The notes under the pieces: generated by a model
Database searches by the model: none
What the model was told of the DNA's origin: nothing
Seen by the model: the letters and a program-made list of their open reading frames with translations, nothing else
Translations under genes and position numbers: made by a program
Origin: Candidatus Kaiserbacteria bacterium
Lineage (GTDB): Bacteria; Patescibacteriota; Minisyncoccia; Phycocordibacterales; UBA2100
DNA length: 64,000 nt
Reading direction: 5' to 3'
Assembly: GCA_028286585.1 (NCBI GenBank)
Contig: JAQBRI010000009.1
Coordinates: 28,010 to 92,009 of the forward strand
In this document: piece after piece, positions 44,901 through 64,000 of the stretch
Layout: every line of letters starts with the position of its first letter
Numbering within the stretch: position 1 is the stretch's first letter

Positions 44901-47900
44901 ATTGCAGTGCCACCATTACTGACTGGAGGAGTAAATGTGATTGTTGCTTGGCCGTTACCACGTGTTGCCGTTCCTATAGTTGGTGCACCAGGCGCTGTAG
45001 CTGGTGTTACTGCATTACTAGTACCCGAAGAAATACTGGTACCTGACGCGTTCGTTGCCGTTACTGTAAATGTGTACGTTGTTCCATTTGTGAGACCAGT
45101 AATTGTGATTGGTGAGCTGCCGCCGGTTGCGGTAAAACCGCCGGTGTTTGATGAGACAGTATAATTTGTAATTGGTGAGCCTCCCGAATTTACTGGAGGT
45201 GCAAAAGTAATAGTTGCTTGTCCATTTCCGGGAACTGCCGTAACACTCGTCGGCGCATTTGGTACCGTTTGATAATTTAAATATGCATAAGTAGTTCCCG
45301 GCGTAATCGCCCAAACTGGCGAAACAAAATCCCAGTTTGTATATGTCGCCTGGGTCTTCAATGCAGTAGTAGTTGTACCTGTCATTCCTGCCGGATCGGC
45401 ACCATTACCAACACCATTACTTTTGCCAGATGTAACGTTGTCCCAATAATCAGATACGTAAGATCCACCGATTGGATTTCCAACAATGCCTCCCACATAT
45501 TGAAGTGCCGCAGCACCAGTTGCTCCTGAGGCGCCCGCGGCGCCTCCTGTTCCTCCTGTTCCTGCAGCGCCTCCTGTTCCACCTGTTGCACCACTCGTTT
45601 TGGTGCCTGTCGGCACACCTGTTGCGTATGTATTTGTAATCACCGCATTATTACTTCCAAACAATCCTCCAGCATACGCGTTTCCGCCAGCACCTCCGGC
45701 GCCGCCTGTTGCACCCGTACCATTTACACCAGCCACTCCGCCTCCTGCTGCTCCGGCGTTTCCGCCAGCACCTCCTATCGCACCGGTTCCCGGAGTTCCG
45801 GCCGTAATAGTGACGTTTCCACGTGCGTAAGTATTTGTTATAACTCCCGTGTTCTGACCAACAAGTCCTCCGCCTGTCACATCACCTCCAACACCTCCTG
45901 TGCCGCCAGTTCCTCCAGTGGCTCCTGCACCACCGTTTCCAGATCCACCCGATCCACCAACGCCTCCGTTTCCGCCCTTTCCGCCGACCGCACCATTGCC
46001 TCCGTTGCCTCCTGTTATGCTTACGTTTCCGGATGAATAACTCGTATTAAAAGTTCCGGTCGCAAGATCTGCTCCCATAAGCCCGCCCGCAAATGATGCG
46101 CCGCCGGCACCACCATTTCCTCCTGCTACAGAAGCACCACCTGCGCCACCGGCAAGTGTTCCGCCTGCGCCACCTGTACTAACGGTACCCGAGAGTCCTG
46201 CGGAGGCACCAGCGCCACCAACAAGTGAGACATTTCCTGATGACCACGAAGAGAGCACAGTACTTCCCGAAGCGTTTTGTCCGACAAGTCCGCCAGCATA
46301 TGCTGCGCCTCCGGCGCCTCCCGCCGCAGTTGCACCCATTGCTCCGCCTATACCACCTGCGCCGGTTGGACCACCCGCGCCGCCGTTTCCTCCGACACCA
46401 CCTGCACCACCTACGCCGCCAGCAGAGCCGTTTACGTTCACGGCTCCAGTTCCATATGAAGTAGAAATCGTTCCGCCATTATTTTGTCCAACAAAACCAC
46501 CGCCATACGCGATACCTCCAACACCTCCTGCAGTACGTGCGCCAGCAATGCCGCCAGTTCCGCCAGTTCCCGCAACAATTCCTGCGCCGCCCGCCGCACC
46601 ATTTCCTCCCAATCCGCCAACGCCTCCTGCGCCGCCGGTTACCGTAACAGAACTGTTTGCATATGAATCTTTAATCGTTCGCCCAGTATTGTTATATCCA
46701 TTAAATCCACCCGCGTATGCAATACCTCCAACACCAGCCGCGCCCGCTGAACCGCCCGCGCCGCCTGTCGCACCATTTGCAGCCGTTGCGATTCCGCCGG
46801 CAACTCCAGCGCCGCCAGTTCCTCCAACACCTCCTGCACCAGCCGAACCCAAAACTGTTGTTGACGCGTAGGACCCCGAAAGCACGGTTCCATCATTAAA
46901 GCCAATGAGTCCGCCCGTATAAAGAACTCCTCCAGAAACTGCTGCGCCGCCTGCACCACCTGCACCACCAACTCCGGCTGCTCCAGGTAATCCTCCTATG
47001 CCTCCTGTACCACCGGACCCGCCGACTCCACTCGTGCCAGTAACAGATGCGCCAATTGCATAACTTGTTGCAATAGTATTAAGCGCATTCACGTTGTTAC
47101 CAATGAGTCCGCCCGAGTAGGACGCGCCACCAATTCCTCCAGCACCTCCTGTTCCGCCAGTGCCTCCAACATGTGCACTTGTTCCGAGACTTCCATCGCC
47201 GCCCGCGCCGCCTGTCGCACCAGTTGCACCGTTTTTAGCAATCGAAACAACACTACCTAATGCAAACGAATTTAAAACAACTCCGATTGCGGTATTGTGT
47301 GCAATGAGTCCTCCAACATATGCTGCACCTCCTGCTCCTCCTGCTCCTCCTGCTCCACCCGAGGCGGCAGTACTACCCGATACACTTCCAGAAGCACCTC
47401 CCGCAGCTCCCGCTCCCGGTGTTCCTGCAGTGCCACTCGTTGAAGTAGCATTTCCTGTCGCGTATGAATTTCCTTGAATCGTACCAAAGTTAAAAGCGAC
47501 AAGTCCGCCGGCATATGCTGCACCGCCCACGCCGGTAGCGCCACCCAAGCCGCCGGTTCCTCCGATTGATCCAGATCCACCGGCGCCACCAATCACTCCC
47601 GCCGCGCCATTACCGCTGGTGCCGCCATTTGCAATAACATTGTCAGTTGAATAACTTGAAGTAATGATGAGGTTGTTACTCGCGGTAGCACTGGTGCGCC
47701 CTACCAACCCACCGGCATATGCAGCACCGCCAGCTCCCGACGTACCTCCACCGCCCGTTGCAGCACCAACTGCCGCGGATCCGCTGGTGCCAGAGGCTCC
47801 TGCGCTTCCTCCATTTCCTCCTGTGCCACTTGTCGAGGTTACAATATTGCCTGTTGCATATGAAGTAAGAACGTTATTGGCCCCGGTTGTCGCACCAGTA

Positions 47901-50900
47901 AATCCAGCTAATCCTCCTGCGTTACCGTCGCCTCCTGCTCCGCCAATTCCGCCGGCACCTCCCGCGCCGCCAACAGAACTTGCTGCACCATTTGCACCAA
48001 CTCCTCCTGTGTTTCCAGTGCTTCCAATACCACCCGTTGCGGAAACTGCTCCCGTTGCATAACTATTCACTATATCGCTTTGTCCCCCTGTTGTAACAAA
48101 ATTCAATCCAATCAAGCCGCCGGCAAAACCCGAACCGCCGGCTGCAGCAAGCACAGCGCCACCGCCAGCACCTCCTGCAACTGTTGTTCTAGATGCGCCA
48201 CCATTTCCGGACGTTCCTGCTGTTCCCGCATTTCCGCCGGTTGAAGAAGCATTCCCAGTAGCATAATCAAAACTATAATTTACGATTCCAGAAGTAACAT
48301 TAGTGTACCCAACCAAACCACCTGCGTTACCATCGCCTCCGATACCTGCCGAACCGCCAAGTGCTCCTGCCGAACCTGCATGAGTTACGGTTCCGGTTGA
48401 ACCATCACCTCCCACACCACCTGCTCCACCAGTGCCTCCAGTTCCGCCGGTGACCGTAGCATTTCCCGTTGCATATGAATTAAGTATTTGTAATGTTTGT
48501 GTAGTTGCATTTATACGTCCAACGAGTCCTCCGCCATACGTCACACCACCTGCACCACCGGCACCTCCTGCACCACCTGCAGCTGCAATACCACTTGCAA
48601 TTGTGCTACCACTCGTGCCTCCTGCTCCTCCCACTCCTCCCGTTCCTCCAGTACCTCCCGTGACTGAAAAAGAAATCGAGGAGTACGAATTATTCTGAAT
48701 TGTTCCAAGGTTATCACCAACAAGTCCACCATAACTACGAGCGCTTCCGGCGCCTCCTGCACCTCCTGCAGTTCCTGTACCTCCGGCAAAGGCGCCTACT
48801 CCAGTTCCGCCCGCACCGCCAATTCCGCCGGTTCCTGCCGTTTGCTCAGTTCCCGAAATCGCGATCGTATCAGAATACGATGTTGTAATAATTCCGGCAG
48901 CACTATTAAATCCCGCAAGACCTCCAACAAATGTACCGCCGCCCGCGCCTCCTACGCCTCCAACTCCGCCGGCACCTCCTGCACTTCCAGCTGCAAGTCC
49001 CGAGCCTCCAGCACCGCCATTTGCACCATTTCCCATTGCACCGCCCGCGACACTAATATTTCCTTTTCCAGATCCGGCATCAACACTTGCATACGACGCA
49101 ATAATTTCGGATGCGTTATTTCCTACAAGTCCACCGACATGAATCAAACTGGACGCGCCACCGGCTCCGCCTGCTGATCCCGCTGCACCACCACCCGCCG
49201 CTCCGCTTCTTCCAGCGGTTCCGTTTTGTCCTGCACCCCCAGTCACATTGAGTGCAGTCTTTGAATACGAAGTCTGAATAACTCCGATCGAATATCCCAC
49301 AAGACCACCGACATATACGCCGCCGCCAGCACCTCCTGCACCACCTGCGCCTGCAATACCATAAAGCGCTGTTCCTGTTCCAACTCCGCCCGCGCCGCCC
49401 TGCGCGCTTGCTCCGCCGGCACTCCCTGTCACGGTAACGGTTCCCGTTTGTGAGTATGAATTAGTAATTGTTCCAACAAAGTTTTGTCCAACGAGTCCGC
49501 CGGCCTGCAGTGCACCAGCAACGAGTCCGCCGCCAGCACCTCCGGCACCGCCCACTCCGCCAGTACCACCTAAGTGGTTGGTCGCGAGTGTTCCATCGCC
49601 GCCCGCACCACCGACACCTCCTGCACCACCTGACCCACCAGTTGCATTCACATCGGATGTTGCATATGAATTATTTATAATTCCAGCAACGGTATTGTTT
49701 CTTCCTACCAAACCGCCTACGTTAACTGCTCCGGCCACACCGCCAGAAGCACCTGCGCCGCCCGCTGCTGCTGTGCCAGCTGAAATATTTCCCGAAGCTC
49801 CTGCAGTACCTCCAGCGCCCGCGGCACCACCGGCACCAGAAAAAGCACTTACTGCTCCTGTTGTATGAAAACTGCTTTGAATTGTGGTTGGACTGTCTCC
49901 CACCAAACCTCCCGTATAGTTAACTCCTCCACCTCCACCGACTGCTCCATTACCACCAGCACCCCCAAGAGACGCGGACCCTCCTGCACCACCGGCACCA
50001 CCAGAGCCCGATGCTCCACCTGCTCCCGATGTTCCTCGGATAATTCCTGTTGAACTTGATGTCGCAATATTTCCTCCAGAAGCTGCTGCTGCTGCGACAA
50101 GGCCACCTGCGTAGGATGCGCCGCCCAATCCAGCAGCTCCACCAGTTGCACCCGCTCCTCCCGCCGAGGCTGTACCGCCAGCACCTCCGGCGCCGCCATT
50201 TCCTGCAGCACCGCCCACTCCGGCAAGGACAGTCACGTTACCTGATGTAAATGAATTTCCAATAAAAACGTTTGTGTTTGTAAATCCAAGGAGTCCACCT
50301 CCGTTTGCAAATCCTCCTGCGCCTCCAATTCCTCCTACTGCTCCCGCGCCGCCCGTTATAGAATTTGTTACCCCGCTTCCGCCCGCGCCACCTACTGCAC
50401 CTGCACCGCCCGCTCCGCCCGTTACTGTTATGTTTCCTGAAGCGCGAGAATTATTTATCGACTGTCCAGTTCCCGAGTTAAATCCTTCGAGTCCGCCTGC
50501 GTATGCACCAAAGTTAAGTGCTCCGCCGCCTCCGCCCGCGCCACCAGTTCCACCGACTGCTCCATTTGTACCGGCAACTGCCGCACCGCCCGCACCACCG
50601 CTGCCTTCTGTAATAGTGACATCGTCGGATGATGACAATGATTCAATAATCACATCTGCAAGCGAATTGAGTCCGATAGCTCCGCCACTATAGATTGGTC
50701 CGGCAACACCACCCGCGCCTCCGGTTCCACCAGTTCCATTTCTTCCACTTCCCGATCCGCCCGCGCCGCCAGTTCCGCCAGTTCCCCCAACACCACCCGA
50801 ACCGCCAAGAGTTACAGTAATTGTTCCTCCACTACTTGAAGAGGAGGCAATATTTCCATTACCTTGTCCTGCGAGACCGCCAATATATACCACGCCACCT

Positions 50901-53900
50901 CCGCCGCCGGTACCTCCAGTTCCTGCTACTCCGCCTGCATGCCCTCCTGTTCCCAATGTTCCGTCTCCGCCATTTCCACCTGCGCCTCCCGTTCCGCCAC
51001 TTCTTCCGCTTGCGGTAAGACTACCAATAACGATGTCATTAATAAGGACTCCTGAGTTATCGCCAACAAGTCCACCGATGTATTCGGCACCGCCAACTCC
51101 ACCGATACCTCCGGTCCCTCCCGTTGCACCGGTGCCTCCGGCAATATTTCCCGAAGCACCAGCGGCACCTCCCGCTCCCGCGCCACCCGCGGCTCCTCCC
51201 ACAACACTAATAGAAGTAATTGTGTATGTTACGTCTCGAATGATTCCAGTATTGAAACCCATGATGCCTCCGCCCGCAGCAAGTCCGCCGGTACCACCGG
51301 CACCTCCTGCGCCGCCCGCTCCACCAATTGCTCCGGCTGTACTGCCGCCGGCACCACCCACTCCACCTGTGACGCCAGTACCTCCGGCACCTCCCGTTGA
51401 AGAAATAGTTCCAGTAGTATTTGGAAGACTGATTGTTGTTCCTAGGACACTATCGTTACCAATCACTCCTCCTGCGTATGACGCACCACCGACTCCTCCT
51501 GCACCTGATGTAATTCCCGCAGCTCCTGCAACACCAGCGCCCGATGTTCCAGGAGTTCCGGCAAGTCCACCATTTCCCGCAGCTCCGCCAAGAGCAACAG
51601 CATTGCCCGCAGCATATGAATCAGGACTTACGACCGCTGCATTAAATCCAACAAGGCCGCCCGCAGCGGCAAGTCCTCCGGCTTCGCCACTCAATCCGGC
51701 GACACCTCCCGTTGTACCAGCCGATCCGCCGGCAAACGCACCCGAAGAATTTCCTCCGTTTCCGGTTGTCGCTCCCGCCGCTCCTACTCCACCGGTTGCA
51801 AGTGCGTTACCTGATGCGTGCGAACCATTTTGAATTATTCCGTTTGTCGTATTAAAACCGACGAGTCCGCCCGCGTACGCAAGACCTGCGGCGTTTGATG
51901 CTGCAGCACTAGCCGAAGTATTTCCTCCAGCGCCGCCTGTTGTACCAGCTCCACCATTTCCTCCGCTGCCGCCGGCACCTCCCGCCCCGCCCGTCGCTGA
52001 GGCATTGCCTGTTGCGTACGAACCATTAATTACTCCACTACTATTTCCCGCGAGTCCTCCTGCGTACGCTGCCTTACCCAAAGCAACAGCAGCGCCTGCG
52101 CCGCCCGCAGCACCAGTGCCTCCGACACCTCCGTTACCACCGCTTCCAGTTACACCCGCGGTTGAAGTTGCGTTAATAGTCGCGTGTGATCCCAAAATGA
52201 CACCGCTTGTTGAATTGTTTGCGACGAGTCCGCCGGCGTATGCAAACCCGCCAAGCGAAACACTTGTTCCGCCAACTCCACCAACTCCGCCCAAAGCACC
52301 ACTTCCACCTGTGCCCCCTGCTCCACCATTTGCGCCTATTCCACTTGCTCCACCTTGTGAGATTACAGAACCGGATTCTATATATGCATTTATTATTGTC
52401 GAAGTATTCAAGCCGACGAGACCACCAGCAAACGAGTCCCCACCCGCGCCAGCAGTTCCCCCTGTTGCACCCACCGCACCAACATGTGATGACCCTCCTG
52501 CTGATCCGTTTCCAGCAACACCCGCTGCTCCACCATTTTTTCCAGTTGATCCGGTTGCAACAATACTTCCGGACGCGTATGAATTTATTATTTCGTTTAA
52601 GTTGTTACCCACGAGTCCGCCCGCGTATGCAATAGCACCAGCGCCACCGTTTCCGCCAAGTCCACCTGCTGCTGCAGTACCCGAGTTAAACGTTGCAGTT
52701 GTAGCGCCTCCCGCACCACCTGCACCAGCATTTCCTGGCGTGCCTCCTACAGATGTGACATTGCCCGTTGAGTATGAAGTGGTTCGAATGATACCGCCGT
52801 TTTGTCCGACAAGACCTCCAGCCGTACTGATACCACCCGCGCCACCGTTGCCTCCGGTCGCTCCAACTCCACCAATCGCATTTGTTCCGCCGGTGCCTCC
52901 TGCACCACCCACTCCGCCAATGCCACCAGTTCCTCCGGTTACTGTCGTGCTACCGACCGCATAACTTGTAGTGACTGTTCCCAATGAAATGATACCAACG
53001 AGTCCTCCACCAAATGCGGCACCTCCTGCACCTCCCGTTCCACCCAATGCTCCAGCTCCACCTGTTGTACTTGCTGCTCCAGTTCCACCGGCACCTCCTG
53101 CACCTCCAATTCCGCCCGTGCCTCCAAGAGAATTAACGGTGCCCGTTGCGTAGGAAGTTAAAATTTCTCCAGTCGTCAAAAATCCAACCAAGCCTCCAAC
53201 ATACGCAATACCTCCGACAGCTCCTGTTCCTCCGGTAATGCCGGCCAAACTTGTACCACCCGCGCCACCTGCTGCTGCAGCACCGCCCGCGCCTGCTGTG
53301 CCGCTCACGTTCCCTGTTGAAAAATCATTGGTCAATGTTGATCCAGTGTTGTTTCCTACAAATCCGCCCGCATACACAATACCCCCCGCTGTTGCGGTAC
53401 CCGCAGCTCCGGCAAGTGCACCGGTGCCGCCCGCACCCCCTGCTCCTGCTGCACCTCCTGCGCCCGCAACACCTGTAACTGATCCAATAGTGTAATTACT
53501 ATCAGTAATTGTGAGTGCATTATTTCCAGCAAGTCCTCCAACATACAGAATTGCACCTGCTCCTCCAATACCACCCGCAAGACCGGCGAGTCCGGTGAGT
53601 CCTGTAACTCCGTTTGCTCCGGCACCTCCTGCGCCGCCGGTTCCATTTACAATATTTTGTGCACTCGATGTTTGAATGATTCCTGTATTACTTCCCACGA
53701 GTCCGCCGGCATATGTTGAAAGCACGTTTGCAGATCCGCCGGTGCCCGATGCACCGCCCGCACCTGACGTTCCACTTGAACCTTTGGTACCGCCCGCGCC
53801 TCCCGTGCCGCCAACTCCACCCGTGCCGCCAACAACAGTCACTAATCCAGTATTTGAAAAAGATGAAATAATTATTCCCGAGTTAAGACCAACAAGTCCT

Positions 53901-56818
53901 CCCGAATATGCTGCGCCTCCTGCGCCGCCTGCTGCTCCTCCTCCGCCTGTTCCTCCTATGTGTGCAGTTCCAAGAGATGCGTCACCTCCAGTTCCACCAA
54001 CTTGTCCAACTTTTCCCGTTGACCCAGTTGCAGTAACGGCGCCTGTCGCAAAGACCGCTGTTGTCGTACCAGTAATAATACCGCCAAGGTTATTTTGTCC
54101 AACGAGTCCGCCCGCATATGCTATAGCACCTGCTCCACCTACTCCGCCTGCACCACCAGTTGCTGCAGTGAGCGTAGTTGCAACAGCAGAAGCGCCGGCA
54201 GTTGCGCCAGCCGAACCATTGCCCGGTGTTCCTCCGGTTGATTGCACGACGCCTGTTGCGTTACTGCCCGTTTGAATTATTCCCAAGTTGTTTCCGACAA
54301 GTCCTCCGACATACGAAACACCGCCGGCTCCACCTGTGCCGCCGGCGCCTCCTGCTCCACCAATTGCAGCACCGCCTCCAGCACCACCTACGCCCGCAGT
54401 GCCGGCTGCTCCGCCCAATCCGCCGGTTCCGGTTACTGTTCCTGTTGCGGTAACAGAAGTCAGGATTCCTGCATTCACCCATCCGGCAAGGCCACCAACA
54501 TAATCAATACCTCCCGCTGCTGCAAGACCAACAGCTCCGCCTGCGCCTCCAATACCTGTTCCAGCATTAGCACCTCCGGCACCACTATTTCCAGAAGCAC
54601 CTCCTGCGCCTCCCGTTCCTATAACATTTACACCACTCGTTGCAGCTGTAATATTTCCTTGTTGAGAATAACCAACGACTCCACCAACGTAGACTGTTCC
54701 TCCCAATGCTGCCGCATTCGAAACACTTGCTCCGCCCGCGCCTGCCGTAGTCGCGCCGCTCGTTGTGTTTCCGCCTGCTGCCGCATTACCTGCTGCGCCT
54801 CCTGCACCTCCTACACCTGTTACATTTCCAGAAACACTTACGTTTGAAATCGTACCAATGTTGTATCCGACCAGTCCTCCCACATACATAGTTGCTGCAG
54901 CAGTTCCTGCCGTACCGGTTCCTCCAGCAGTTGGTGTCGTACCTGCAGTTCCAGCAGTTCCAGCGGTACCGGCAACACCCGCCGTACTTGTTGCACTAAT
55001 CAACTCGCCCGAGAGAATAACGTTTTTGATAGTGTTGTTAGAAAAACCAAAAAGACCAACATAGTTGAGCGTTGTCGTACTTATAAAAAGATTACTGATG
55101 GTAAAGTTTGCACCATCAAAGATTCCACTAAAGTTGGTTGTGTTATCGCCTATCGGCACAAAGCCTGCACCCAAGTTCCATCCCGATGTTACCGTCGCAT
55201 TAATATTATTATTAAGTTTGTATGAGTTGGTAAGTCCGGTTCGAATACCCTGCAAACCATATACGTCGTACGTAATAAAAGGATCGGTACTCACGCCAAT
55301 GCCGGTATATCGTCTAAAGGTTCCCGCTGTTACCGAAAAGTTTCCCGTCGCAGCAAATGTATTGGTGCCGGGATTGTTTGCAACAAAAGTTGCGGCTGAT
55401 GATTGCACATAATTTCCCGACAAACCTCCAGCGTTCGAAATCGTAAGACTCGCATTTTGTGTAATGGTACCAGTGTAGCCGGCGATCGTGAGCGATCCAA
55501 TAGTAAAAGCAGTATCAATGTTTGATGCGTTTGATCCTGTATCAAATATCACATCGGTGTTTACATCAGGAGTAGAAGCACCGGACGCGCCGTTAGATGT
55601 TGCCGACCAGCTTCCGGTCGAGCTCCACAAAGCGCCCGAAGCACCAACCCAGTATCGTGTCGTCGGGTCGACGACATAATCAATATCAACATTTCCAATA
55701 ATCTTAAGATCAAACTCGTCGGTCGGAGTTTGAAGATTGGTCAAAAGAATACGGTACTTTCCATCATGATCAATTGCATCAAACGTGCCGACAAGTACAC
55801 CATCAAGTGTGTACACTTCTACGCGCACCGATGCACCATCGTGTGACCGAGCATACAACGTAATGTCTTTTGTATTGTCGAGCAGCTGTGCAAACGTAAC
55901 GCGCACAAACTGTCCGTCAGAAATATTTGCATACTGCTGGTCTTGCGATTGCAAGAGTGGATACACATCGCCAATTGTATTTTTGTTTGCATCAAGTTGC
56001 AGTGCCTTCGAAATATAAATAATGGTAAATGTCTGAGTCGACAAGTGCGGCACGATCCACGCAACATGATCTATGTATCCGTTACCATCGTCATCAAACG
56101 ATTGAAACTCCATAACTTGATTTGCATTGTTCTGCCAATTTATTTTTATCTGATCTTCTTGACCAACCTTAAATATTTCTGGAATAGCAGTTCGCACCGG
56201 TACGTTCAAGATTGGTGTTATTTCATTTTCAAGATCCGCGACAGATACGACAACTGTCTTGCCATTGTCGTTTGTGTGTTCGGTGATCGTAGGCACCTGC
56301 ACCAGAATCGGTAACGCAAGATCCGAAGTCGATGCAGTATTTTGTGAATTTAAAAAAGTATCAGTCGACGTTGCTGTCAAAATTGCAGCACCACCTGAAC
56401 TAGTAAAAATATTTTGCACAGAACTCGATGCGCTGGTGTTATCAGAAATTATTTCTGTCGAAGATGCTTGAGTAAATGAAGTATCAGTTGAAGTTGCAAT
56501 ACTACTGCTCGCATTAATTACTTCACTTTGTAAACTATCGGTAGAAGTCGTTGCGGGGGGCTGTATTTTAGCATCACCCGAATCCTGTGAAACTTGGCTT
56601 CCCTGCCCAACCTGGTCGTCGGAGCTGGTAGCGACTGGCGCAGGAGTAGTCGCATCCTCTGTTGAAGTTACGATTACAGTATTTGTATCAGTGACAATTG
56701 GCGTTGCATCATCAGCATGCGTCGATACAACGTTTCCAAATAATATTCCAAGTACAAAAAAAACCCCTACAACAATTTGTAGCGGTAATCGGAATATTCT
56801 AAAAAATGGCTCAATCAC
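38993..56818 (-). CDS. giant (5,941 aa) secreted/surface fibre protein: signal-anchor, S/T-rich stalk, beta-helix-like head, ~50 GLUG-like Gly/Ala-rich repeats, 21 FN3 repeats, Ig-like module, poly-Gly linker, C-terminal dockerin-like module
   Basis: A single uninterrupted 17,826-nt ORF with a GTG start at 56818, the only start-type codon that retains the hydrophobic N-terminus 'FRLPLQIVVGVFFVLGILFGNVVSTHA'. The domain layout was read from the translation (see the sub-features). Confidence 0.9.
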   Translation of the reverse strand: MIEPFFRIFRLPLQIVVGVFFVLGILFGNVVSTHADDATPIVTDTNTVIVTSTEDATTPAPVATSSDDQVGQGSQVSQDSGDAKIQPPATTSTDSLQSEVINASSSIATSTDTSFTQASSTEIISDNTSASSSVQNIFTSSGGAAILTATSTDTFLNSQNTASTSDLALPILVQVPTITEHTNDNGKTVVVSVADLENEITPILNVPVRTAIPEIFKVGQEDQIKINWQNNANQVMEFQSFDDDGNGYIDHVAWIVPHLSTQTFTIIYISKALQLDANKNTIGDVYPLLQSQDQQYANISDGQFVRVTFAQLLDNTKDITLYARSHDGASVRVEVYTLDGVLVGTFDAIDHDGKYRILLTNLQTPTDEFDLKIIGNVDIDYVVDPTTRYWVGASGALWSSTGSWSATSNGASGASTPDVNTDVIFDTGSNASNIDTAFTIGSLTIAGYTGTITQNASLTISNAGGLSGNYVQSSAATFVANNPGTNTFAATGNFSVTAGTFRRYTGIGVSTDPFITYDVYGLQGIRTGLTNSYKLNNNINATVTSGWNLGAGFVPIGDNTTNFSGIFDGANFTISNLFISTTTLNYVGLFGFSNNTIKNVILSGELISATSTAGVAGTAGTAGTAGTTPTAGGTGTAGTAAATMYVGGLVGYNIGTISNVSVSGNVTGVGGAGGAAGNAAAGGNTTSGATTAGAGGASVSNAAALGGTVYVGGVVGYSQQGNITAATSGVNVIGTGGAGGASGNSGAGGANAGTGIGGAGGAVGLAAAGGIDYVGGLAGWVNAGILTSVTATGTVTGTGGLGGAAGTAGVGGAGGGAAIGGAGGAGGTGGAGGVSYVGGLVGNNLGIIQTGSNATGVVQSTGGTPGNGSAGATAGASAVATTLTAATGGAGGVGGAGAIAYAGGLVGQNNLGGIITGTTTAVFATGAVTATGSTGKVGQVGGTGGDASLGTAHIGGTGGGGAAGGAGGAAYSGGLVGLNSGIIISSFSNTGLVTVVGGTGGVGGTGGAGGTKGSSGTSGAGGASGTGGSANVLSTYAGGLVGSNTGIIQTSSAQNIVNGTGGAGGAGANGVTGLTGLAGLAGGIGGAGAILYVGGLAGNNALTITDSNYTIGSVTGVAGAGGAAGAGGAGGTGALAGAAGTATAGGIVYAGGFVGNNTGSTLTNDFSTGNVSGTAGAGGAAAAGGAGGTSLAGITGGTGAVGGIAYVGGLVGFLTTGEILTSYATGTVNSLGGTGGIGGAGGAGGTGAASTTGGAGALGGTGGAGGAAFGGGLVGIISLGTVTTSYAVGSTTVTGGTGGIGGVGGAGGTGGTNAIGGVGATGGNGGAGGISTAGGLVGQNGGIIRTTSYSTGNVTSVGGTPGNAGAGGAGGATTATFNSGTAAAGGLGGNGGAGAIAYAGGLVGNNLNEIINSYASGSIVATGSTGKNGGAAGVAGNGSAGGSSHVGAVGATGGTAGAGGDSFAGGLVGLNTSTIINAYIESGSVISQGGASGIGANGGAGGTGGSGALGGVGGVGGTSVSLGGFAYAGGLVANNSTSGVILGSHATINATSTAGVTGSGGNGGVGGTGAAGGAGAAVALGKAAYAGGLAGNSSGVINGSYATGNASATGGAGGAGGSGGNGGAGTTGGAGGNTSASAAASNAAGLAYAGGLVGFNTTNGIIQNGSHASGNALATGGVGAAGATTGNGGNSSGAFAGGSAGTTGGVAGLSGEAGGLAAAGGLVGFNAAVVSPDSYAAGNAVALGGAAGNGGLAGTPGTSGAGVAGAAGITSGAGGVGGASYAGGVIGNDSVLGTTISLPNTTGTISSTGGAGGTGVTGGVGGAGGSTAGAIGGAGGAGGAGGTGGLAAGGGIMGFNTGIIRDVTYTITSISVVGGAAGGAGAGGAAGASGNIAGGTGATGGTGGIGGVGGAEYIGGLVGDNSGVLINDIVIGSLTASGRSGGTGGAGGNGGDGTLGTGGHAGGVAGTGGTGGGGGVVYIGGLAGQGNGNIASSSSSGGTITVTLGGSGGVGGTGGTGGAGGSGSGRNGTGGTGGAGGVAGPIYSGGAIGLNSLADVIIESLSSSDDVTITEGSGGAGGAAVAGTNGAVGGTGGAGGGGGALNFGAYAGGLEGFNSGTGQSINNSRASGNITVTGGAGGAGAVGGAGGSGVTNSITGGAGAVGGIGGAGGFANGGGLLGFTNTNVFIGNSFTSGNVTVLAGVGGAAGNGGAGGAGGTASAGGAGATGGAAGLGGASYAGGLVAAAAASGGNIATSSSTGIIRGTSGAGGASGSGGAGGAGGSASLGGAGGNGAVGGGGGVNYTGGLVGDSPTTIQSSFHTTGAVSAFSGAGGAAGAGGTAGASGNISAGTAAAGGAGASGGVAGAVNVGGLVGRNNTVAGIINNSYATSDVNATGGSGGAGGVGGAGGDGTLATNHLGGTGGVGGAGGAGGGLVAGALQAGGLVGQNFVGTITNSYSQTGTVTVTGSAGGASAQGGAGGVGTGTALYGIAGAGGAGGAGGGVYVGGLVGYSIGVIQTSYSKTALNVTGGAGQNGTAGRSGAAGGGAAGSAGGAGGASSLIHVGGLVGNNASEIIASYASVDAGSGKGNISVAGGAMGNGANGGAGGSGLAAGSAGGAGGVGGVGGAGGGTFVGGLAGFNSAAGIITTSYSDTIAISGTEQTAGTGGIGGAGGTGVGAFAGGTGTAGGAGGAGSARSYGGLVGDNLGTIQNNSYSSISFSVTGGTGGTGGVGGAGGTSGSTIASGIAAAGGAGGAGGAGGVTYGGGLVGRINATTQTLQILNSYATGNATVTGGTGGTGGAGGVGGDGSTGTVTHAGSAGALGGSAGIGGDGNAGGLVGYTNVTSGIVNYSFDYATGNASSTGGNAGTAGTSGNGGASRTTVAGGAGGGAVLAAAGGSGFAGGLIGLNFVTTGGQSDIVNSYATGAVSATGGIGSTGNTGGVGANGAASSVGGAGGAGGIGGAGGDGNAGGLAGFTGATTGANNVLTSYATGNIVTSTSGTGGNGGSAGASGTSGSAAVGAATGGGGTSGAGGAAYAGGLVGRTSATASNNLIITSSYSTDNVIANGGTSGNGAAGVIGGAGGSGSIGGTGGLGGATGVGGAAYAGGLVAFNFGTIQGNSYATGNATSTSGTAGTPGAGAAGGASGSVSGSTAASGGAGGAGGAGGAAYVGGLIAHNTAIGVVLNSFALGSVVSIAKNGATGATGGAGGDGSLGTSAHVGGTGGTGGAGGIGGASYSGGLIGNNVNALNTIATSYAIGASVTGTSGVGGSGGTGGIGGLPGAAGVGGAGGAGGAAVSGGVLYTGGLIGFNDGTVLSGSYASTTVLGSAGAGGVGGTGGAGVAGGIATAANGATGGAGGSAGAAGVGGIAYAGGFNGYNNTGRTIKDSYANSSVTVTGGAGGVGGLGGNGAAGGAGIVAGTGGTGGIAGARTAGGVGGIAYGGGFVGQNNGGTISTSYGTGAVNVNGSAGGVGGAGGVGGNGGAGGPTGAGGIGGAMGATAAGGAGGAAYAGGLVGQNASGSTVLSSWSSGNVSLVGGAGASAGLSGTVSTGGAGGTLAGGAGGASVAGGNGGAGGASFAGGLMGADLATGTFNTSYSSGNVSITGGNGGNGAVGGKGGNGGVGGSGGSGNGGAGATGGTGGTGGVGGDVTGGGLVGQNTGVITNTYARGNVTITAGTPGTGAIGGAGGNAGAAGGGVAGVNGTGATGGAGGAGGNAYAGGLFGSNNAVITNTYATGVPTGTKTSGATGGTGGAAGTGGTGGAAGASGATGAAALQYVGGIVGNPIGGSYVSDYWDNVTSGKSNGVGNGADPAGMTGTTTTALKTQATYTNWDFVSPVWAITPGTTYAYLNYQTVPNAPTSVTAVPGNGQATITFAPPVNSGGSPITNYTVSSNTGGFTATGGSSPITITGLTNGTTYTFTVTATNASGTSISSGTSNAVTPATAPGAPTIGTATRGNGQATITFTPPVSNGGTAITTYTVSSNTGGFTATGGSSPITITGLVNGTTYTFTVTATNSAGTSSPSGTSNSVVPATVPGAPTGVSAVRGDTQATVSFTPPVNNGGSAITTYTVTSNVGGFTGTGSGSPIVVTGLTNGISYSFTVTATNAVGTSTASIASNSVIPATAPGAPTSVTATGGNGQATITFTPPVSNGGSAITTYTVSSNTGGFTATGGSSPITITGLVNGTTYTFTVTASSALGTSTPSSTSNSVVPATVPDAPTIGTATRGNTQATITFTPPVSNGGSAITGYTVTSNTGGFTATGGSSPITVTGLTNGTAYTFTVTATNSVGTSTASNATNSATPATIPDAPTSVIGTAGNGQVTISFTPGNTGGSPITLYTVSSNTGGFTTSGGSSPITLIGLTNGTAYTFTVTATNAVGTSASSSASSSVTPATVPDAPTSVSAVRGDTQATISFTPPVNNGGSAVTTYTVSSNVGGLTATGGSSPITITGLTNGTIYTFTVTATNSAGTSTASGTSNAITPAGVPSAPTSVTAVAGNGQATISFTPGNNNGSSISIYTVSSNTGGFTATGGSSPITVTGLTNGTAYTFTVTETNAIGTSTNSGTSNTITPATAPGAPTSVSAVAGNGQATVSFTPPVSNGGSAITTYTVSSNTGGFTATGGSSPITITGLTNGTTYTFTVTGTNSAGTSTASATSNTVVPATTPNAPTIGTVTRGNGEVTVTFTPPVSNGGAAITTYTVSSNTGGFTATGGSSPITVTGLTNGTAYTFTVTATNSVGTSASSSASASVTPATIPDAPTSVTAVRGDTQATISFTPPVSNGGAAITTYTVTSNVGGFTATGGSSPITVTGLSNGVVYAFTVTANNSAGTSTSSGISNSITPAGVPSAPTSVTAVGGNGQATITFTPGSNNGSAITNYTVTSNIGGFNVTGISSPLTVTGLTNGTAYTFTVTATNGVGTSTSSTLSNSVTPATVPNAPTGAVATAGNGQATITFTPPVSNGGAAITTYTVTSNSGGFTASGSGSPITVTGLTNGTAYTFTVTATNGVGTSTSSTLSNSVTPATAPGAPTSVSAVAGNGQATITFTPPVSNGGSAITNYTVSSNTGGFTATGGGSPITITGLTNGTTYTFTVTASNNVGTSTASSASNSVTPVTVPNAPTAVTAVSGNGQATVSFTPGSNNGSAITNYTVSSNTGGFTASGGSSPITITGLTNGTTYTFTVTATNAVGTSTPSGTSNTVVPATTPNAPTSVTAVSGNGQATITFTPPVNNGGAAVTSYTVTSSSGGLTATGGSSPITVTGLTNGTTYTFTVTATNAAGTSTASSASNSVIPGTVPNSPTGISAVGGNGQATITFTPPVSNGGAAITNYTVSSNTGGFTATGGSSPITITGLTNGTTYTFTVTATNSIGTSTSSGTSNSVTPATVPDAPTSISAVAGNGQATVSFTPPVSNGGAAITNYTVSSNTGGFTATGGSSPITITGLVNGTTYTFTVTATNNVGTSTSSGTSNSVVPAGGPSAPTSVAAVGGDGTATITFSPPSFTGGSAITSYTVTSNIGNFTATGGSSPITVTGLTNGTAYTFTVTATNAIGTSISSAATNSVTPATVPDAPTNLAAAIADSSVNLTWSAPGFNGGSPITSYTVTSNGGVFSTTTNGTSATIQGLTNGTTYTFTVTATNAVGTSTSSGTSNAATPASVPGAPINLAAIVQDSSINLSWSAPISNGGSPVTDYVVEYKLSSGGTWSIFSDGISTTPTTMVTSLSNNNSYDFRISAKNLVGRGTTTIPVSATPGAPAQVLIQSFSGLTVPSIATAVRITNEGSIAYEYQYTWCVTDSATNSCGGGDDIFSSTAAKLIQPGANFDTTLSSTVPVIGTYWFHVAVQYGSASSSASQSFTAIAAPVQNPGNGGGGGGGGGGGGGGGDNSPPVATPAATTEVIGDINGDGKVNGIDFSILLAYWKTKPPFKNNKVDLNHDGKVDSVDFSILLYHWKK
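38996..39160 (-). other. dockerin-like module (two F-hand Ca-binding segments) at the C-terminus of the giant protein
   Basis: 'GDINGDGKVNGIDFSILLAYW' and 'VDLNHDGKVDSVDFSILLYHW' each fit D-x-N-x-D-G-x-[VI]-[ND]-x-x-D followed by an amphipathic helix, the duplicated dockerin signature. Confidence 0.7.
39206..39250 (-). repeat. 15-residue poly-glycine linker coding tract
   Basis: The + strand reads tcc tcc gcc tcc ccc acc tcc tcc acc tcc gcc acc gcc acc tcc, which is 15 consecutive Gly codons (GGA/GGC/GGG/GGT mixed) on the minus strand. The context is P-G-N-G15-D-N-S-P. Confidence 0.95.
39590..45265 (-). repeat. array of 21 tandem FN3-like repeats (~90 aa / 270 nt each)
   Basis: Counted from the translation. 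The consensus is 'P[GDN]APT.V.A..GNGQATI.FTPP..NGG.AIT.YTV.SNTGGFTATGGSSPIT[IV]TGL.NGT.YTFTVTATN..GTS..S..SN.V.PA'. The last two or three units are more divergent ('LSWSAP...YDFRISAKN'). Confidence 0.9.
41772..42145 (-). repeat. 104-nt perfect direct repeat pair (41772-41875 and 42042-42145), exactly one FN3 unit (270 nt) apart
   Basis: Checked base by base: ggtgtcacagaattgcttagtgtcgaggaggtacttgtgccaacgccattagttgcagtaacggtaaatgtgtatgcggtgccattggtaagaccggtcacagt occurs twice. Confidence 0.95.
45440..55066 (-). repeat. array of ~49-50 GLUG-motif-like repeats (~65 aa) with Gly/Ala-rich spacers
   Basis: I counted recurring units of the form '[AVS]Y[VA]GGLVG.N.G.I..SY[AS]TG.V...GG.GG' followed by spacers such as 'AGGAGGTGGAGG'. 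The first is 'NYVGLFGFSNNTIKN' and the last is 'QYVGGIVGNPIGGSYVSDYW'. Confidence 0.7.
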
Positions 56819-60577: not shown

Positions 60578-60605
60578 AGGGACGGTCACCACCGTCCCTT
60601 TTTTA
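60578..60605. terminator. hairpin terminator between convergent genes
   Basis: agggacggt-cacc-accgtccct stem followed by ttttttatt. Confidence 0.8.
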
Positions 60606-60628: not shown

Positions 60629-62635
60629 TTACTCTAAAACTTCTTGAACGATTCCTTGTACAGAATCACCTTCTTCAGGAATTATAGGTTGATGACTTTT
60701 GTTGGTACTTTTTGGTAACAAAATTCTGCGTCCATCTTTTTTGTCATACATTTTAATAGTCACGTTATCACCAAGCAATGCAACTACCCTATCACCAGTT
60801 TCTCCTTTTTCCGCAAATCTACACAGAACCAGATCTCCATCATTTATGCCTGCCAAGTCCATAGAATCCCCGTTCGCACGCAGTATAAAGTAAGTGGCAC
60901 CTGCCCTAAGTTTCGACTTTGGAACCATTATTTCATCTTCAATATTTTCTTCTCCGAGCAAGGGACTTCCGCACGGTGCCGAACCCACGATCGGCACTTG
61001 AACCATTGCAACCGTAATTGGAGATTTTATAGGTTGATACTCGTTATCTGATAAAACCGCCTGCTTATCGGAAAACATTGACGAAAAATATTTTCTTAAT
61101 TCCTCATCCACAACATAAACAAATGTGCCTTTTATTCCTCGTGTTAACAATGTCTTATAGATATTTGTAATATATCCCTTGAGTTCTTCAGGGTCCGATA
61201 TTGATCTCTTCCCGTTAATATCTTTGTATTTCTTTTCATCAATAATAATGCGTTTTGCTATTGGATCATATGAAAATTCAGGTCCTATGATTACGCCGGT
61301 GTAATTTAGATCATATCCCTGTACAGTGTGAATACATCCAACTTCATTTAGAGAGTTTTTTGAATTAACCCAATCTATATTCGTGCTATTCCAGGTAAGT
61401 TGTAAGCCATCAATCTCGATATCATGACCCGGTTTGTTTCCTTTTGTTTTCCACGACCAGGCATATCCTGCAACGAGACGCGCTAATTTATGCTCTGCGT
61501 CCTTGGTTTTGATATCTTCAACCATATCGCGAATTGAGTCGTACATTTTAAATTCATAGTTTGAAAATCGAGGCTGTTCTACATGACGGCCTTCAAGTAA
61601 ATTGTCTACGAATCGCAAATAATCTTCACCTGCATTGATACGCATCTGGCTTACCAATTCAAACTCTTTTGCATCAAGTTTAGAAAAATCTGTAGCTTGT
61701 ACGTCTCCCGGGACGACATTTTGTTTTTTGTCGTAGAAGAATATTTGTTTTTTAGAGCACTTCATTACCCAATCAAGCTGTGTACCTTCCTTTGCCAGGC
61801 CTAACGCACGATTCGTTTGATCATAGGAGCCAAAGTTTGCTAGATTTACTCTTCGTCGAAGCCTATGTGCTTCATCAACAATAAGTAAATCATATTCTTT
61901 TTTCACAACATCACTCGGTCCAATCACCATTTCGACCCCAAGACCTGGAACTCTTTTTACTACTCTTTGTAGTGTTGCTCGTAAACCTGTCATTGGAACA
62001 ACAAGGGCAATCTTAAGATGACTTGTTTCCGAGGTTTCCTTAAGATGTTTGAGCAAATACATTGCGAGTATCGATTTACCAGTACCCGGATTACCATGGA
62101 CGATATGGGTCGAAACTTTATTTGCTTTTATACTTTCCTCGAGTGCTGTTGCAACTTCAAGCTGATCTTCTGTAAGTGCTTTATATGGAGAGTACTTAAA
62201 AAACTCACTGTTTTTTATCGAATGTAAATCTTCTTTAACGAGCCCGAGTTCTTGTAGTTTTGGCCATATAACATCCAATTTGGCTTGATATTTTTCCTTT
62301 TCGAAATAGTTATGATTTATTAAACCACCATTCCCATTTTGCAGTTTAAATACACCATCAGCAGAAACATATTGGATAAGTAAGGATTCGAAATCAAAGG
62401 CAGAGGAAAGATTAAATTCTTCATCTGTAAGTACGTGGATTCTTTTTAAGCGACGTCTATTCTCATTAAGGTCGTAATGTTGTTTACTTCTTGAGTAAAG
62501 AGTGGTCGTCTGTCCAATATACATCTCACTACCATTTTCTTGGATGTATACGACTGGCCAATTTAGGCCATAGTGAAAATCTCTGAGTTTATCAAAGTCT
62601 TTGCGATCAAAGGGGAAAGTTTTGATCTCTACCAT
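60629..62635 (-). CDS. three-domain fusion: GIY-YIG-like nuclease + DUF2075/Schlafen-like P-loop ATPase(helicase) + LexA/UmuD-type S24 peptidase domain
   Basis: 668 aa. The N-terminus 'WPVVYIQENGSEMYIGQTTTLYSRSKQH' is GIY-YIG-like. It has Walker A 'HGNPGTGKSILAMYL' and Walker B-like 'YDLLIVDEAHRL'. The C-terminus 'VPIVGSAPCGSPLLGEE...ILRANGDSMDLAGINDGDLVLCRF...VTIKMY' aligns with LexA/UmuD, with the GDSM Ser and the Lys 37 residues apart. Confidence 0.75.
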   Translation of the reverse strand: MVEIKTFPFDRKDFDKLRDFHYGLNWPVVYIQENGSEMYIGQTTTLYSRSKQHYDLNENRRRLKRIHVLTDEEFNLSSAFDFESLLIQYVSADGVFKLQNGNGGLINHNYFEKEKYQAKLDVIWPKLQELGLVKEDLHSIKNSEFFKYSPYKALTEDQLEVATALEESIKANKVSTHIVHGNPGTGKSILAMYLLKHLKETSETSHLKIALVVPMTGLRATLQRVVKRVPGLGVEMVIGPSDVVKKEYDLLIVDEAHRLRRRVNLANFGSYDQTNRALGLAKEGTQLDWVMKCSKKQIFFYDKKQNVVPGDVQATDFSKLDAKEFELVSQMRINAGEDYLRFVDNLLEGRHVEQPRFSNYEFKMYDSIRDMVEDIKTKDAEHKLARLVAGYAWSWKTKGNKPGHDIEIDGLQLTWNSTNIDWVNSKNSLNEVGCIHTVQGYDLNYTGVIIGPEFSYDPIAKRIIIDEKKYKDINGKRSISDPEELKGYITNIYKTLLTRGIKGTFVYVVDEELRKYFSSMFSDKQAVLSDNEYQPIKSPITVAMVQVPIVGSAPCGSPLLGEENIEDEIMVPKSKLRAGATYFILRANGDSMDLAGINDGDLVLCRFAEKGETGDRVVALLGDNVTIKMYDKKDGRRILLPKSTNKSHQPIIPEEGDSVQGIVQEVLE

Positions 62636-62637
62636 AT

Positions 62638-63003
62638 CTACAACTGTGTATACTTTGTGTGCCGCCCTTTGGCCTTTGCTACCGGGTATTTCTCACCATT
62701 TTTCTTCATCTTTTTTTCAAGTGCATCAGAAATATCAATTTTAAGATCATTACACATTAGCAGTACCCAATAGAATACATCGGCTAACTCTTCGGCAACA
62801 TCTTCTTTATTTGTCTTTATGTGTGCCTCCATTTCTTCTTTATTTTTCCATTGAAAATGTTCCATGACTTCGGCAGCCTCTAAAACCAAGGAAATGGCTG
62901 TGTCTTTTGGGTTATGAAATTGTTTCCAATCACGAGCGTCACGAAATGAGACCACGAGCTTTTTGAGCTCCGCAAGGCTCTTTTGGGTCTTTTTTGTCGT
63001 CAT
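62638..63003 (-). CDS. MazG-like nucleotide pyrophosphohydrolase (dCTPase/DCTPP1-like small all-alpha type)
   Basis: 121 aa. 'RDWKQFHNPKDTAISLVLEAAEVMEHFQWK' and 'EELADVFYWVLLMCNDLKIDISDALEKKMKKNGEKYP' give the E-x2-E ... E-x2-D metal motif. Its stop is 2 nt upstream of the fusion gene's start. Confidence 0.8.
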   Translation of the reverse strand: MTTKKTQKSLAELKKLVVSFRDARDWKQFHNPKDTAISLVLEAAEVMEHFQWKNKEEMEAHIKTNKEDVAEELADVFYWVLLMCNDLKIDISDALEKKMKKNGEKYPVAKAKGRHTKYTQL

Positions 63004-63076
63004 AGATAGTCAAATAATACTCTTTTTATGAGATAAAGCTAAAGTGTATTCATAATGATGACTGACCCTATTTCTC

Positions 63077-64000
63077 CTAGTATTTCGTACCGATATATAT
63101 ACCGTAGGTACCATAGCATTGATATCCGCCCTTGCCTTTGTGGGGGCGCATGGACGAGTCATGATTATTTCGAGTGAAGCGTTTACCACAAACACCGCAC
63201 TTAAAGATATACTTTAACCCTCCAGAAAAACGTTGCCCTTGTGGACGAAGTGTACGGACAGTCTGCATACGGGGCGCTCTCGGGGCTTTCTCCGGTTTGT
63301 TTGGATCAAACAAGTATCGATCTTCCGGTATTTCACCCGACTTCGACAGTTCAATCGGATACTGCGGTATAAATTTCACATCTGTATTTTCCAGCGTTTC
63401 CACCTTGTCGGAAATGAAGCTACGCATCCCAGGTGGATTGGTGCCTCCACTTTTGTTGTACGCAAAAAAATACTCACGTTCGCTCCCGTCCCTCTTCTGC
63501 ATGTACTTGAGCGAGTACGGCTCCACAGTGCGGTCCGCACCGTTATAGCGGAAGCGCAGAAGCGTTTGGGTACGTGCTGCGTGCATAATAGTAGCGCGAT
63601 GATCAGCATTGAAATAGGCGAATTGGGCGAAGCCGCTGTCAGAATATCCTGCGAACAGCAGTTCTAGATCTGTGGTAAATGCGATGATTGCATCCTCGAC
63701 ACCAATTAAGAATTCCTTGGCACACACCACAGACTTTGCCCATTCCTGCCGATAGTAGTCAAAACCGGTTTTCAACAGGATGCTTTTGAGTACAAAAGGA
63801 TTTCGAGAGAAGATTGTTTTTTGTATTAGCGTGCGCATCACTTCTCCCCTGTCGAGGCTGCCACCCAACTTCTGAATGGAGTAAGCATAGTCAAAAAGAT
63901 CTGGCGCGTGCTGGCGCTGCATCATACATTTCAGCTTTGTGGCGATAATCTCTTCGAGCTTCATACAGCGAATAGTGCATGCCACCTCTTCCGCATCCGA
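63077..64000 (-). CDS. AbiEii/DUF1814-like nucleotidyltransferase C-terminal region + WYL-like domain + C-terminal Zn-ribbon; 5' end beyond the window
   Basis: The frame stays open to position 64000. 'KLEEIIATKLKCMMQRQHAPDLFDYAY' resembles the conserved C-terminal helix of AbiEii-type NTases. 'LLRFRYNGADRTVEPYSLKY...REYFFAYN' is WYL-like. The tail is 'CGVCGKRFTRNNHDSSMRPHKGKGGYQCYG'. Confidence 0.5.
   Translation of the reverse strand, partial: SDAEEVACTIRCMKLEEIIATKLKCMMQRQHAPDLFDYAYSIQKLGGSLDRGEVMRTLIQKTIFSRNPFVLKSILLKTGFDYYRQEWAKSVVCAKEFLIGVEDAIIAFTTDLELLFAGYSDSGFAQFAYFNADHRATIMHAARTQTLLRFRYNGADRTVEPYSLKYMQKRDGSEREYFFAYNKSGGTNPPGMRSFISDKVETLENTDVKFIPQYPIELSKSGEIPEDRYLFDPNKPEKAPRAPRMQTVRTLRPQGQRFSGGLKYIFKCGVCGKRFTRNNHDSSMRPHKGKGGYQCYGTYGIYIGTKY

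Follow-up and report, generated by a model that had tools for sequence, protein, structure and literature searches.

A MazG-like gene and a GIY-YIG nuclease-helicase with a LexA-like S24 tail form a two-gene operon in Candidatus Kaiserbacteria and a candidate gated defence system

Do the three co-directional genes at the end of a 64,000-nucleotide (nt) stretch of a Candidatus Kaiserbacteria contig (JAQBRI010000009.1; the whole stretch is referred to as the window) act as one defence module, or does a smaller unit lie beside an independent gene? An earlier note on this DNA had read the last 3.4 kb (60629-64000) as a single three-gene system consisting of an AbiEii/WYL-like/Zn-ribbon protein, a MazG-like pyrophosphohydrolase and a fusion of a GIY-YIG nuclease, a Schlafen-like DUF2075 helicase and an S24 peptidase. 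The layout itself was confirmed from the open reading frame (ORF) coordinates: three minus-strand ORFs of 668 amino acids (aa), 121 aa and, truncated by the window edge as had been recognised, 307 visible codons of a 472-aa protein are separated by gaps of 2 nt (62636-62637) and 73 nt (63004-63076). The comparisons single out a horizontally mobile operon of low G+C content (60629-63003), made up of the MazG-like and nuclease-helicase genes, as the functional unit, and the AbiEii-WYL gene is a mere neighbour of it.

Loci related to the nuclease-helicase were collected from GTDB species genomes (21 loci) and from metagenomes (80 loci of at least 561 matches), giving a total of 101, and those in which the 5' flank of the nuclease-helicase gene was present (20 genome and 76 metagenome loci, mostly from Patescibacteria, the candidate phyla radiation (CPR)) were treated as evaluable. 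The genome loci derive from Adler-, Kaiser-, Sacchari-, Pacei- and Moranbacteria and from one member of the Gastranaerophilales. In 94 of the 96 evaluable loci (20/20 genome and 74/76 metagenome loci) the gene immediately preceding the nuclease-helicase gene is MazG-like, at a distance of about 0-8 nt in all 20 genome loci. No third conserved gene emerged when the neighbouring ORFs of 21 loci were clustered all against all, nor when 109 neighbours were surveyed with Pfam; the neighbours of the pair change from locus to locus and include Fic (4 times), HTH_3, IMS polymerase, DUF3800, NYN, M78, SocA and Bro-N.

The AbiEii-WYL protein was matched in none of the 101 loci carrying the nuclease-helicase, and its own relatives in two other loci (85% and 67% identity; L023 and L024) have neither MazG nor DUF2075 neighbours. 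The G+C content is 0.379 in the nuclease-helicase gene and 0.396 in the MazG gene, 8-10 points under both flanks, namely the AbiEii-WYL gene (0.481) and the GNAT gene on the other side (0.485); the AT-richness relative to the GNAT gene that had been ascribed to the whole region is therefore a property of the pair and does not extend to the AbiEii-WYL gene. This compositional step and a promoter-like box belonging to MazG (described below) set the AbiEii gene apart from the two-gene cassette. The co-directional arrangement of the three genes, with AbiEii only 73 nt away, and their membership of defence-associated families favour a single sensor/effector module. However, this candidate was rejected on the 0/101 co-occurrence, the unlinked relatives elsewhere, the unlike G+C contents (0.48 versus 0.38-0.40) and the separate promoter-like element before MazG, and it is considered extremely improbable. 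Co-occurrence in other genomes was the test that the earlier note had itself named, and the three-gene module is refuted as a conserved system, although an interaction peculiar to this strain could still exist. Of the two sensors that had been proposed, S24 lies within the conserved unit and WYL outside it. The features of the pair are as follows, all on the minus strand.

60629-62635, minus strand: nuclease-helicase-S24 fusion gene (668 aa; GIY-YIG nuclease, DUF2075 (Schlafen group-3 type) superfamily 1 (SF1) helicase and S24 autoprotease)
62216-62635, minus strand: GIY-YIG nuclease domain (residues 1 to about 140)
61070-62188, minus strand: SF1 helicase core (residues about 150-522; PF09848)
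60968-60973, minus strand: codons of the predicted self-cleavage bond Cys555-Gly556 (from alignment to UmuD and LexA)
60632-60994, minus strand: S24 peptidase domain (residues 548-668), with Ser591 (GDSM) at 60863-60865 and Lys628 (TIKMY) at 60752-60754
62638-63003, minus strand: MazG-like gene (121 aa; all-alpha (deoxy)nucleoside triphosphate ((d)NTP) pyrophosphohydrolase of the DCTPP1/RS21-C6 type)
63014-63019, minus strand: -10-like hexamer TATTAT, 10 nt before the MazG ATG and within the 73-nt gap (29% GC)

The 668-aa protein is 100% identical to P0001 from a Candidatus Kaiserbacteria metagenome-assembled genome (MAG), and the three domains previously called in it (GIY-YIG, DUF2075/Schlafen-like and S24) were all recovered, GIY-YIG with a sub-threshold Pfam score. 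The helicase is matched by SLFN-g3_helicase/DUF2075 (PF09848) with an E-value of 4e-67 over residues 177-510, and the match to GIY-YIG (PF01541) is weak (1e-3, 19.6 bits versus a cut-off of 22.6, residues 32-63), a precomputed PF01541 hit being present in some of the homologues. Residues Y30, Y39-x-G41, R49, H53, E83 and N100, which follow the GIY-YIG catalytic order, are invariant across 32 homologues. A profile of the N-terminal domain run against the PDB gave the GIY-YIG domain of UvrC (1ycz) and T4 endonuclease II as its best, albeit weak, matches (E = 0.08-0.13), and the N-terminus of the AlphaFold2 model displays a GIY-YIG-like topology, with a beta-hairpin (27-33/37-42) followed by a helix (46-56) and a further helix (76-93). 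The Walker A (G181-x-P-G-T-G-K187-S) and Walker B (D254-E-A-H257) motifs are likewise invariant in the 32 homologues. The model is good for residues 1-522, with a predicted local distance difference test (pLDDT) score mostly above 85 in the helicase, and Foldseek returned the helicase of human SLFN11 (7zel, 5.5e-11) as the best match for this part, followed by RecD2, Dna2, RecD and Upf1. By Pfam and Foldseek only the group-3 helicase domain is present and the Schlafen core (AlbA_2-type) RNase domain is absent; the Pfam scan detected no helix-turn-helix (HTH) domain either, the N-terminal part consisting of GIY-YIG and helicase. The active-site motifs of nuclease, helicase, MazG and S24 are all intact.

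The C-terminal tail was matched by Peptidase_S24 (PF00717; 4e-20, residues 548-656) and, among solved structures, by LexA (1e-11) and UmuD (3e-6). In the alignment APC555-G556 corresponds to Cys24-Gly25 of UmuD and Ala84-Gly85 of LexA; G556 is invariant, and position 555 is a cysteine in most homologues and an alanine in one. The Ser591/Lys628 dyad is invariant (32 and 20 sequences) and is aligned with S60/K97 of UmuD and S119/K156 of LexA. The protein thus shares with LexA, UmuD and phage CI a Ser-Lys dyad, a Cys/Ala-Gly scissile bond and an S24 domain that aligns residue for residue. In contrast to these proteins, it is devoid of an HTH DNA-binding domain and its cargo is a 555-aa nuclease-helicase instead of a repressor domain or the short N-terminal arm of UmuD.

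Twenty orthologues (55-59% identity) carry no S24 domain; they are 516-533 aa long, end at most about 10 residues past the helicase and keep MazG upstream. As such S24-less orthologues exist, the predicted cleavage product (residues 1-555) corresponds to a natural stand-alone enzyme. Conversely, a second helicase lineage that is likewise linked to MazG (L016, L017, L018 and L020) carries an S24 tail 74-81% identical to that of the window on helicase cores only 27-33% identical to the one described here, with an N-terminus in place of GIY-YIG that can be read from its motifs as PD-(D/E)XK-like. Such identity of the S24 domain on diverged helicases points to module shuffling or to an unusually strong constraint on S24. 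Forms bearing S24 are a minority among the 460 strong relatives in a 50%-identity representative library. Judged from these comparisons, the S24 tail is a detachable, modular cassette. The genes of the second lineage are located at 7305-9611 (L016), 7305-9614 (L017), 1060-3405 (L018) and 7284-9593 (L020), and one S24-bearing protein of this lineage comes from Gastranaerophilales, outside CPR. Locus L023 contains a umuDC-like pair of genes for an S24 peptidase (187 aa) and a Y-family polymerase (IMS) at 6494-8367, beside the AbiEii-WYL relative, which indicates that such organisms own other, presumably RecA-dependent, S24 self-cleaving proteins. A fusion of S24 to a DUF2075 nuclease-helicase or to another defence effector was not found in a literature search, and among the papers of the library searched none mentions both Peptidase_S24 and "defense systems" and none mentions DUF2075 together with MazG.

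The MazG-like call for the 121-aa protein in the earlier note was borne out by Pfam (PF12643; 8e-19, 68 bits versus a cut-off of 27, residues 37-121). Among proteins of known structure it is nearest to a pyrophosphatase from an archaeon (4qgp; 7e-21) and to dCTP pyrophosphatase 1 of mammals (DCTPP1; 1e-17). Residues E42, E45, E48, E72 and D75, which form the EXXE...EXXD metal motif, are kept in at least 98% of 93 sequences, and because this acidic catalytic motif is conserved the protein is taken to be an enzyme and not a degenerate binder. The all-alpha MazG fold family and the metal motif are common to DCTPP1/RS21-C6 and 4qgp; obligate pairing with a nuclease-helicase, however, is not a feature of DCTPP1.

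As the MazG ORF ends 2 nt before the next ATG, the two genes are probably translationally coupled. By eye, a TAnAAT-like box was observed 8-15 nt before the MazG start in the window and in roughly twelve of the 20 loci from genomes; the loci sharing it have unrelated genes upstream of MazG. Since the box recurs whatever lies upstream, the 73-nt gap is best read as the promoter region of the two-gene operon itself, and TATTAT at 63014-63019 is likely, from its sequence and position, to be the -10 element, although a consensus promoter scan gave no call there. No clear Shine-Dalgarno sequence was seen in 63004-63019 or in the MazG upstream regions of L005-L020, and the operon may give rise to an mRNA with little or no leader. 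Inspection of 21 upstream regions by eye did not reveal a common operator or SOS-box palindrome before MazG. In a single case (L001, a JGI contig, 5472-5997) the MazG-like gene is immediately preceded by a 57-aa gene of the MazE/AbrB type, an arrangement that recalls the order mazE-mazF-mazG in E. coli.

Relatives of the pair were also identified outside CPR. On Bacillus cereus-group megaplasmids a MazG gene (46-50% identical) precedes, at a distance of about 250 nt, a gene for a GIY-YIG-DUF2075 protein (34% identical) that has no S24 domain; the pair was found in 11 of the 13 records common to both hit lists, a second GIY-YIG gene intervening in the other 2, and HNH and zeta-toxin genes lie nearby. 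On plasmid p1 of Bacillus sp. PGP15 (L026) the order is MazG, a 686-aa GIY-YIG protein and a DUF2075 protein. One unverified gut "Bacteriophage sp." contig in INPHARED carries the pair at 37% and 39% identity, the other matches in this database being via S24 alone, to phage repressors. A scan of IMG/VR viral contigs returned no relatives, which speaks neither for nor against a role in defence. In 2 of 20 loci an Nhi-like/PDC-S41 gene is located directly downstream of the pair (L008, 6051-8027; L012, 5813-7786), and this paralogue is full-length (PADLOC, 1e-290). In both loci two DUF2075 nuclease-helicases stand in tandem.

The earlier note did not recognise the combination as a named system, and this is correct; yet the core pair is already present as a candidate named "Pyrophosphatase" in a supplementary table of Millman et al. 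2022, represented by SG192 from B. firmus (a 98-aa pyrophosphatase and a 643-aa DUF2075 protein) and SG193 from B. thuringiensis. In the same study a single-gene "Nhi-like" nuclease-DUF2075 protein (SG141), related to Nhi of S. epidermidis, was verified (Millman et al. 2022); the downstream paralogue of L008 and L012 is 28% identical to SG141. The MazG protein of the window is 51% and 45% identical to the pyrophosphatases of SG192 and SG193, respectively, and the SG192 helicase shares 50% identity with L016 and L017 over 400 aa. In both SG192/SG193 and the window a MazG-like pyrophosphatase adjoins a nuclease-DUF2075 gene (2-nt gap in the window), whereas the Bacillus proteins lack S24 and the N-terminus of SG192 is PD-(D/E)XK-like where that of the window protein is GIY-YIG. 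Nhi and Nhi-like proteins likewise combine an N-terminal nuclease and a DUF2075 (PF09848) SF1 helicase in one polypeptide. They differ in that SG141 has an RRPD...ECK motif, read as PD-(D/E)XK, in that similarity to the window protein is confined to the N-lobe of the helicase with no full-length match to the PADLOC Nhi or PDC-S41 models, in that they act as single genes while the gene type described here nearly always occurs with MazG, and in that neither has been described with an S24 domain. The putatively S24-gated form is new, and the underlying pair is already known as an unvalidated candidate.

The best explanation for the pair, which is held to be about evenly poised between right and wrong, is that it would encode an Nhi-type defence nuclease-helicase gated post-translationally by S24 self-cleavage, stimulated by activated RecA (RecA*) on single-stranded DNA (ssDNA), together with a MazG partner that would hydrolyse deoxynucleoside triphosphates (dNTPs). 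The trigger, the direction of the switch, the substrate of MazG and the anti-phage role are inferred, and the sequence of events would be as follows. In the unstressed cell the S24 domain would restrain the enzyme, either as a dimer or by auto-inhibition. Replication of a phage or plasmid, or DNA damage, would give rise to RecA-ssDNA filaments, and these would stimulate self-cleavage at Cys555-Gly556 and release a fragment of about 555 aa resembling the natural S24-less orthologues. The freed nuclease-helicase would then unwind and cut replicating DNA, while the co-translated MazG would lower or sanitise the dNTP pool so that DNA synthesis could not outrun degradation; from the homology to DCTPP1, its substrate may be dCTP, modified dCTP or other (d)NTPs. 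The trigger of Nhi is reportedly phage single-stranded DNA-binding protein or replication complexes, i.e. ssDNA-related cues, and in SLFN11 the helicase domain binds ssDNA and thereby activates the nuclease. Human SLFN11 is at once the closest solved helicase (7zel, 5.5e-11) and a case in which an ssDNA cue is coupled to a nuclease, as proposed here. Unlike SLFN11, the window protein has no Schlafen/AlbA_2 RNase core, its nuclease is of the GIY-YIG DNase type, and sensing is proposed to occur via an S24 autoprotease and not through binding of ssDNA by the helicase.

The domain assignments of the earlier note hold, and its defence-like reading of the locus is judged reasonable. The architecture, the PADLOC matches to Nhi and AbiO, the Nhi-like/PDC-S41 paralogues downstream in L008 and L012, the variable contexts, the low G+C content and the Fic, HTH, M78, SocA, DUF3800, HNH and zeta-toxin neighbours were counted in favour of this reading, as was the fact that Millman et al. 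2022 had picked a homologous pair from defence islands as a candidate; the umuD-like S24 and Y-family polymerase genes on L023 were counted in favour of RecA/S24 biology in these organisms. Several observations weigh against the gated defence effector. SG192 is marked "x" in the published table, which was read as no defence against the phages used since verified systems bear a "v", and the cloning of SG193 failed (Millman et al. 2022); pairs of the pyrophosphatase and DUF2075 kind are therefore unvalidated. Two loci (L038, 2564-5998; L047, 423-2655) carry an S24-bearing nuclease-helicase without an upstream MazG, directly after rpoD in L038 and after a tRNA-Ser gene, possibly an integration site, in L047. 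The identity of 60-74% over several CPR lineages would also fit a conserved cellular function, and some copies lie beside core genes (ribosomal genes/secY in L001, rpoD in L038). In the AlphaFold2 model the pLDDT of the S24 part is 30-60, and no contact between S24 and helicase was deduced. The PADLOC models for Nhi (1.5e-13, residues 146-379 only), AbiO (5e-12) and PDC-S41 (4e-8, residues 288-508 only) cover only parts of the helicase, and PADLOC contains no model for the MazG partner. It is the negative result for SG192 and the housekeeping-like appearance of some contexts that hold confidence at this even level.

Those same contexts bear on an SOS-like repair module, in which RecA*-stimulated cleavage would activate a UvrC-like GIY-YIG nuclease-helicase at stalled forks or lesions, much as UmuD is turned into UmuD', and MazG would clear the dNTP pool of damaged or modified nucleotides. 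LexA and UmuD, whose chemistry the S24 domain shares, are SOS proteins, MazG is homologous to DCTPP1-type enzymes, which are classically house-cleaning, Y-family polymerase genes adjoin the pair in 2 of 20 loci, and both the high conservation of the proteins across CPR lineages and the copies beside the ribosomal operon/secY (L001) and rpoD (L038) would suit such a function. Nevertheless, the contexts vary without conserved synteny with repair genes, the G+C content of the pair is under that of both flanks, the Bacillus megaplasmid relatives lie beside HNH and zeta-toxin genes, Nhi-like/PDC-S41 genes adjoin in two loci, and nuclease-helicases of DUF2075 architecture have so far been known as defence proteins, namely Nhi, Nhi-like and AbiO; repair is regarded as an unlikely explanation.

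The switch might also operate in the opposite sense, RecA* formed upon host damage stimulating a cleavage that removes a dimerisation domain or exposes a degron and so inactivates the nuclease-helicase, sparing repair intermediates of the host. Cleavage inactivates LexA and phage CI, in which an N-terminal functional domain is followed by S24 at the C-terminus, and exposes a degron in LexA fragments; the window protein shares this domain order, and the structure nearest to it, that of human SLFN11, is a dimer according to the title of 7zel. However, the orthologues without S24 amount in essence to the predicted cleavage product, and as these natural proteins are presumably active, removal of S24 alone should not abolish activity, which renders an off-switch quite improbable. 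A toxin-antidote or addiction pair, in which MazG would counteract a toxic nuclease-helicase, e.g. by removing an activating nucleotide, and persistence would be ensured by addiction, appears a shade less probable again: the small gene comes first in a tightly coupled arrangement, cloning failed for a homologous pair and for an Nhi-like gene, perhaps from toxicity, and a MazE/AbrB-like gene precedes MazG in L001, but the invariant catalytic motif of MazG indicates an enzyme instead of a simple binder, the nuclease-helicase occurs without MazG in two loci, and SG192 was clonable.

Known links between DNA damage or ssDNA and immunity are mostly transcriptional, as with LexA boxes, CapH/CapP and WYL regulators such as DriD and BrxR, and an S24 autoprotease fused to a nuclease-helicase would be a faster switch at the protein level. 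The bolder statement that the gated nuclease-helicase would be the first described immune or stress effector controlled post-translationally by the RecA-ssDNA filament, inactive until LexA-like self-cleavage and assisted by a MazG enzyme that collapses or filters dNTPs, is advanced tentatively and with the balance somewhat against it. If true, bacteria would possess an equivalent of the SLFN11 logic, by which ssDNA from replication stress leads to a lethal nuclease, and a portable S24 cassette would have spread over two nuclease-helicase lineages that are deeply diverged and occur mostly in CPR. The pair of a MazG-type pyrophosphatase and a nuclease-DUF2075 helicase is robust, spanning CPR, Bacillus megaplasmids and a gut contig; its sole published test was negative or failed, and the present loci justify taking it up again and supply better material for doing so. 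They also give a lead on the role of bacterial DUF2075 helicases that lack a Schlafen core, and a widespread candidate system in CPR, whose genomes are small and whose immunity is poorly known.

The operon is flanked by the following features.

63077-64000, running past the window edge, minus strand: 3' two-thirds of the AbiEii/WYL-like/Zn-ribbon gene (full protein 472 aa)
60578-60599, no strand assigned: hairpin with a perfect 9-bp, G+C-rich stem between the convergent GNAT gene and the nuclease-helicase gene

The truncated AbiEii-WYL protein gave Pfam matches to AbiEii (6.5e-6, residues 5-68) and, below threshold, to WYL (0.0098, residues 136-170) and a Zn ribbon (0.04, residues 264-297). 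In its identical full-length counterpart P0121 (472 aa, from a Candidatus Kaiserbacteria MAG) the AbiEii domain is matched by Pfam at 1.8e-23 and by PADLOC at 4.6e-46 and contains a GGNAL...DLD motif, in agreement with the AbiEii assignment of the earlier note; the WYL and Zn-ribbon matches of the truncated protein lie under the Pfam thresholds, and a PADLOC WYL model matches at 3e-6. The nucleotidyltransferase domain is that of AbiE (AbiEi/AbiEii, a type IV toxin-antitoxin and abortive-infection system), here, in contrast to AbiE, fused to WYL-like and Zn-ribbon C-terminal regions. An AbiEi antitoxin was not recognised upstream in the two relatives L023 (5001-6404) and L024 (5001-6416), the region upstream of the window gene itself lying beyond base 64000, and the fused WYL/Zn-ribbon region might replace an antitoxin or regulator of AbiEii. 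The fusion (about 470 aa) forms a sizeable and well-conserved family of its own, with over 120 clusters that share 56-85% identity; those with a named source come mostly from CPR/Patescibacteria.

The hairpin at the other end of the operon had been described as a bidirectional terminator. Either strand forms a strong stem (-15.7 kcal/mol, z = -4.7, for the plus strand; -17.6 kcal/mol, z = -3.9, on the minus strand), and a T-run follows on the plus strand only, where it forms a terminator for the convergent GNAT transcript; in the minus-strand transcript the same hairpin has no U-tract. Because the T-run follows on the plus strand alone, "bidirectional" is true of the stem only.

Elsewhere in the window a single minus-strand ORF of 5,941 aa (38993-56818) comprises long Gly/Ala/Thr-rich repeat blocks, dozens of Fn3-like repeats of about 90 aa and a dockerin-like C-terminal part, with a G+C content of 0.52 (locally up to 0.60) versus 0.44 in the remaining window; it probably encodes a giant protein exposed on the CPR cell surface.

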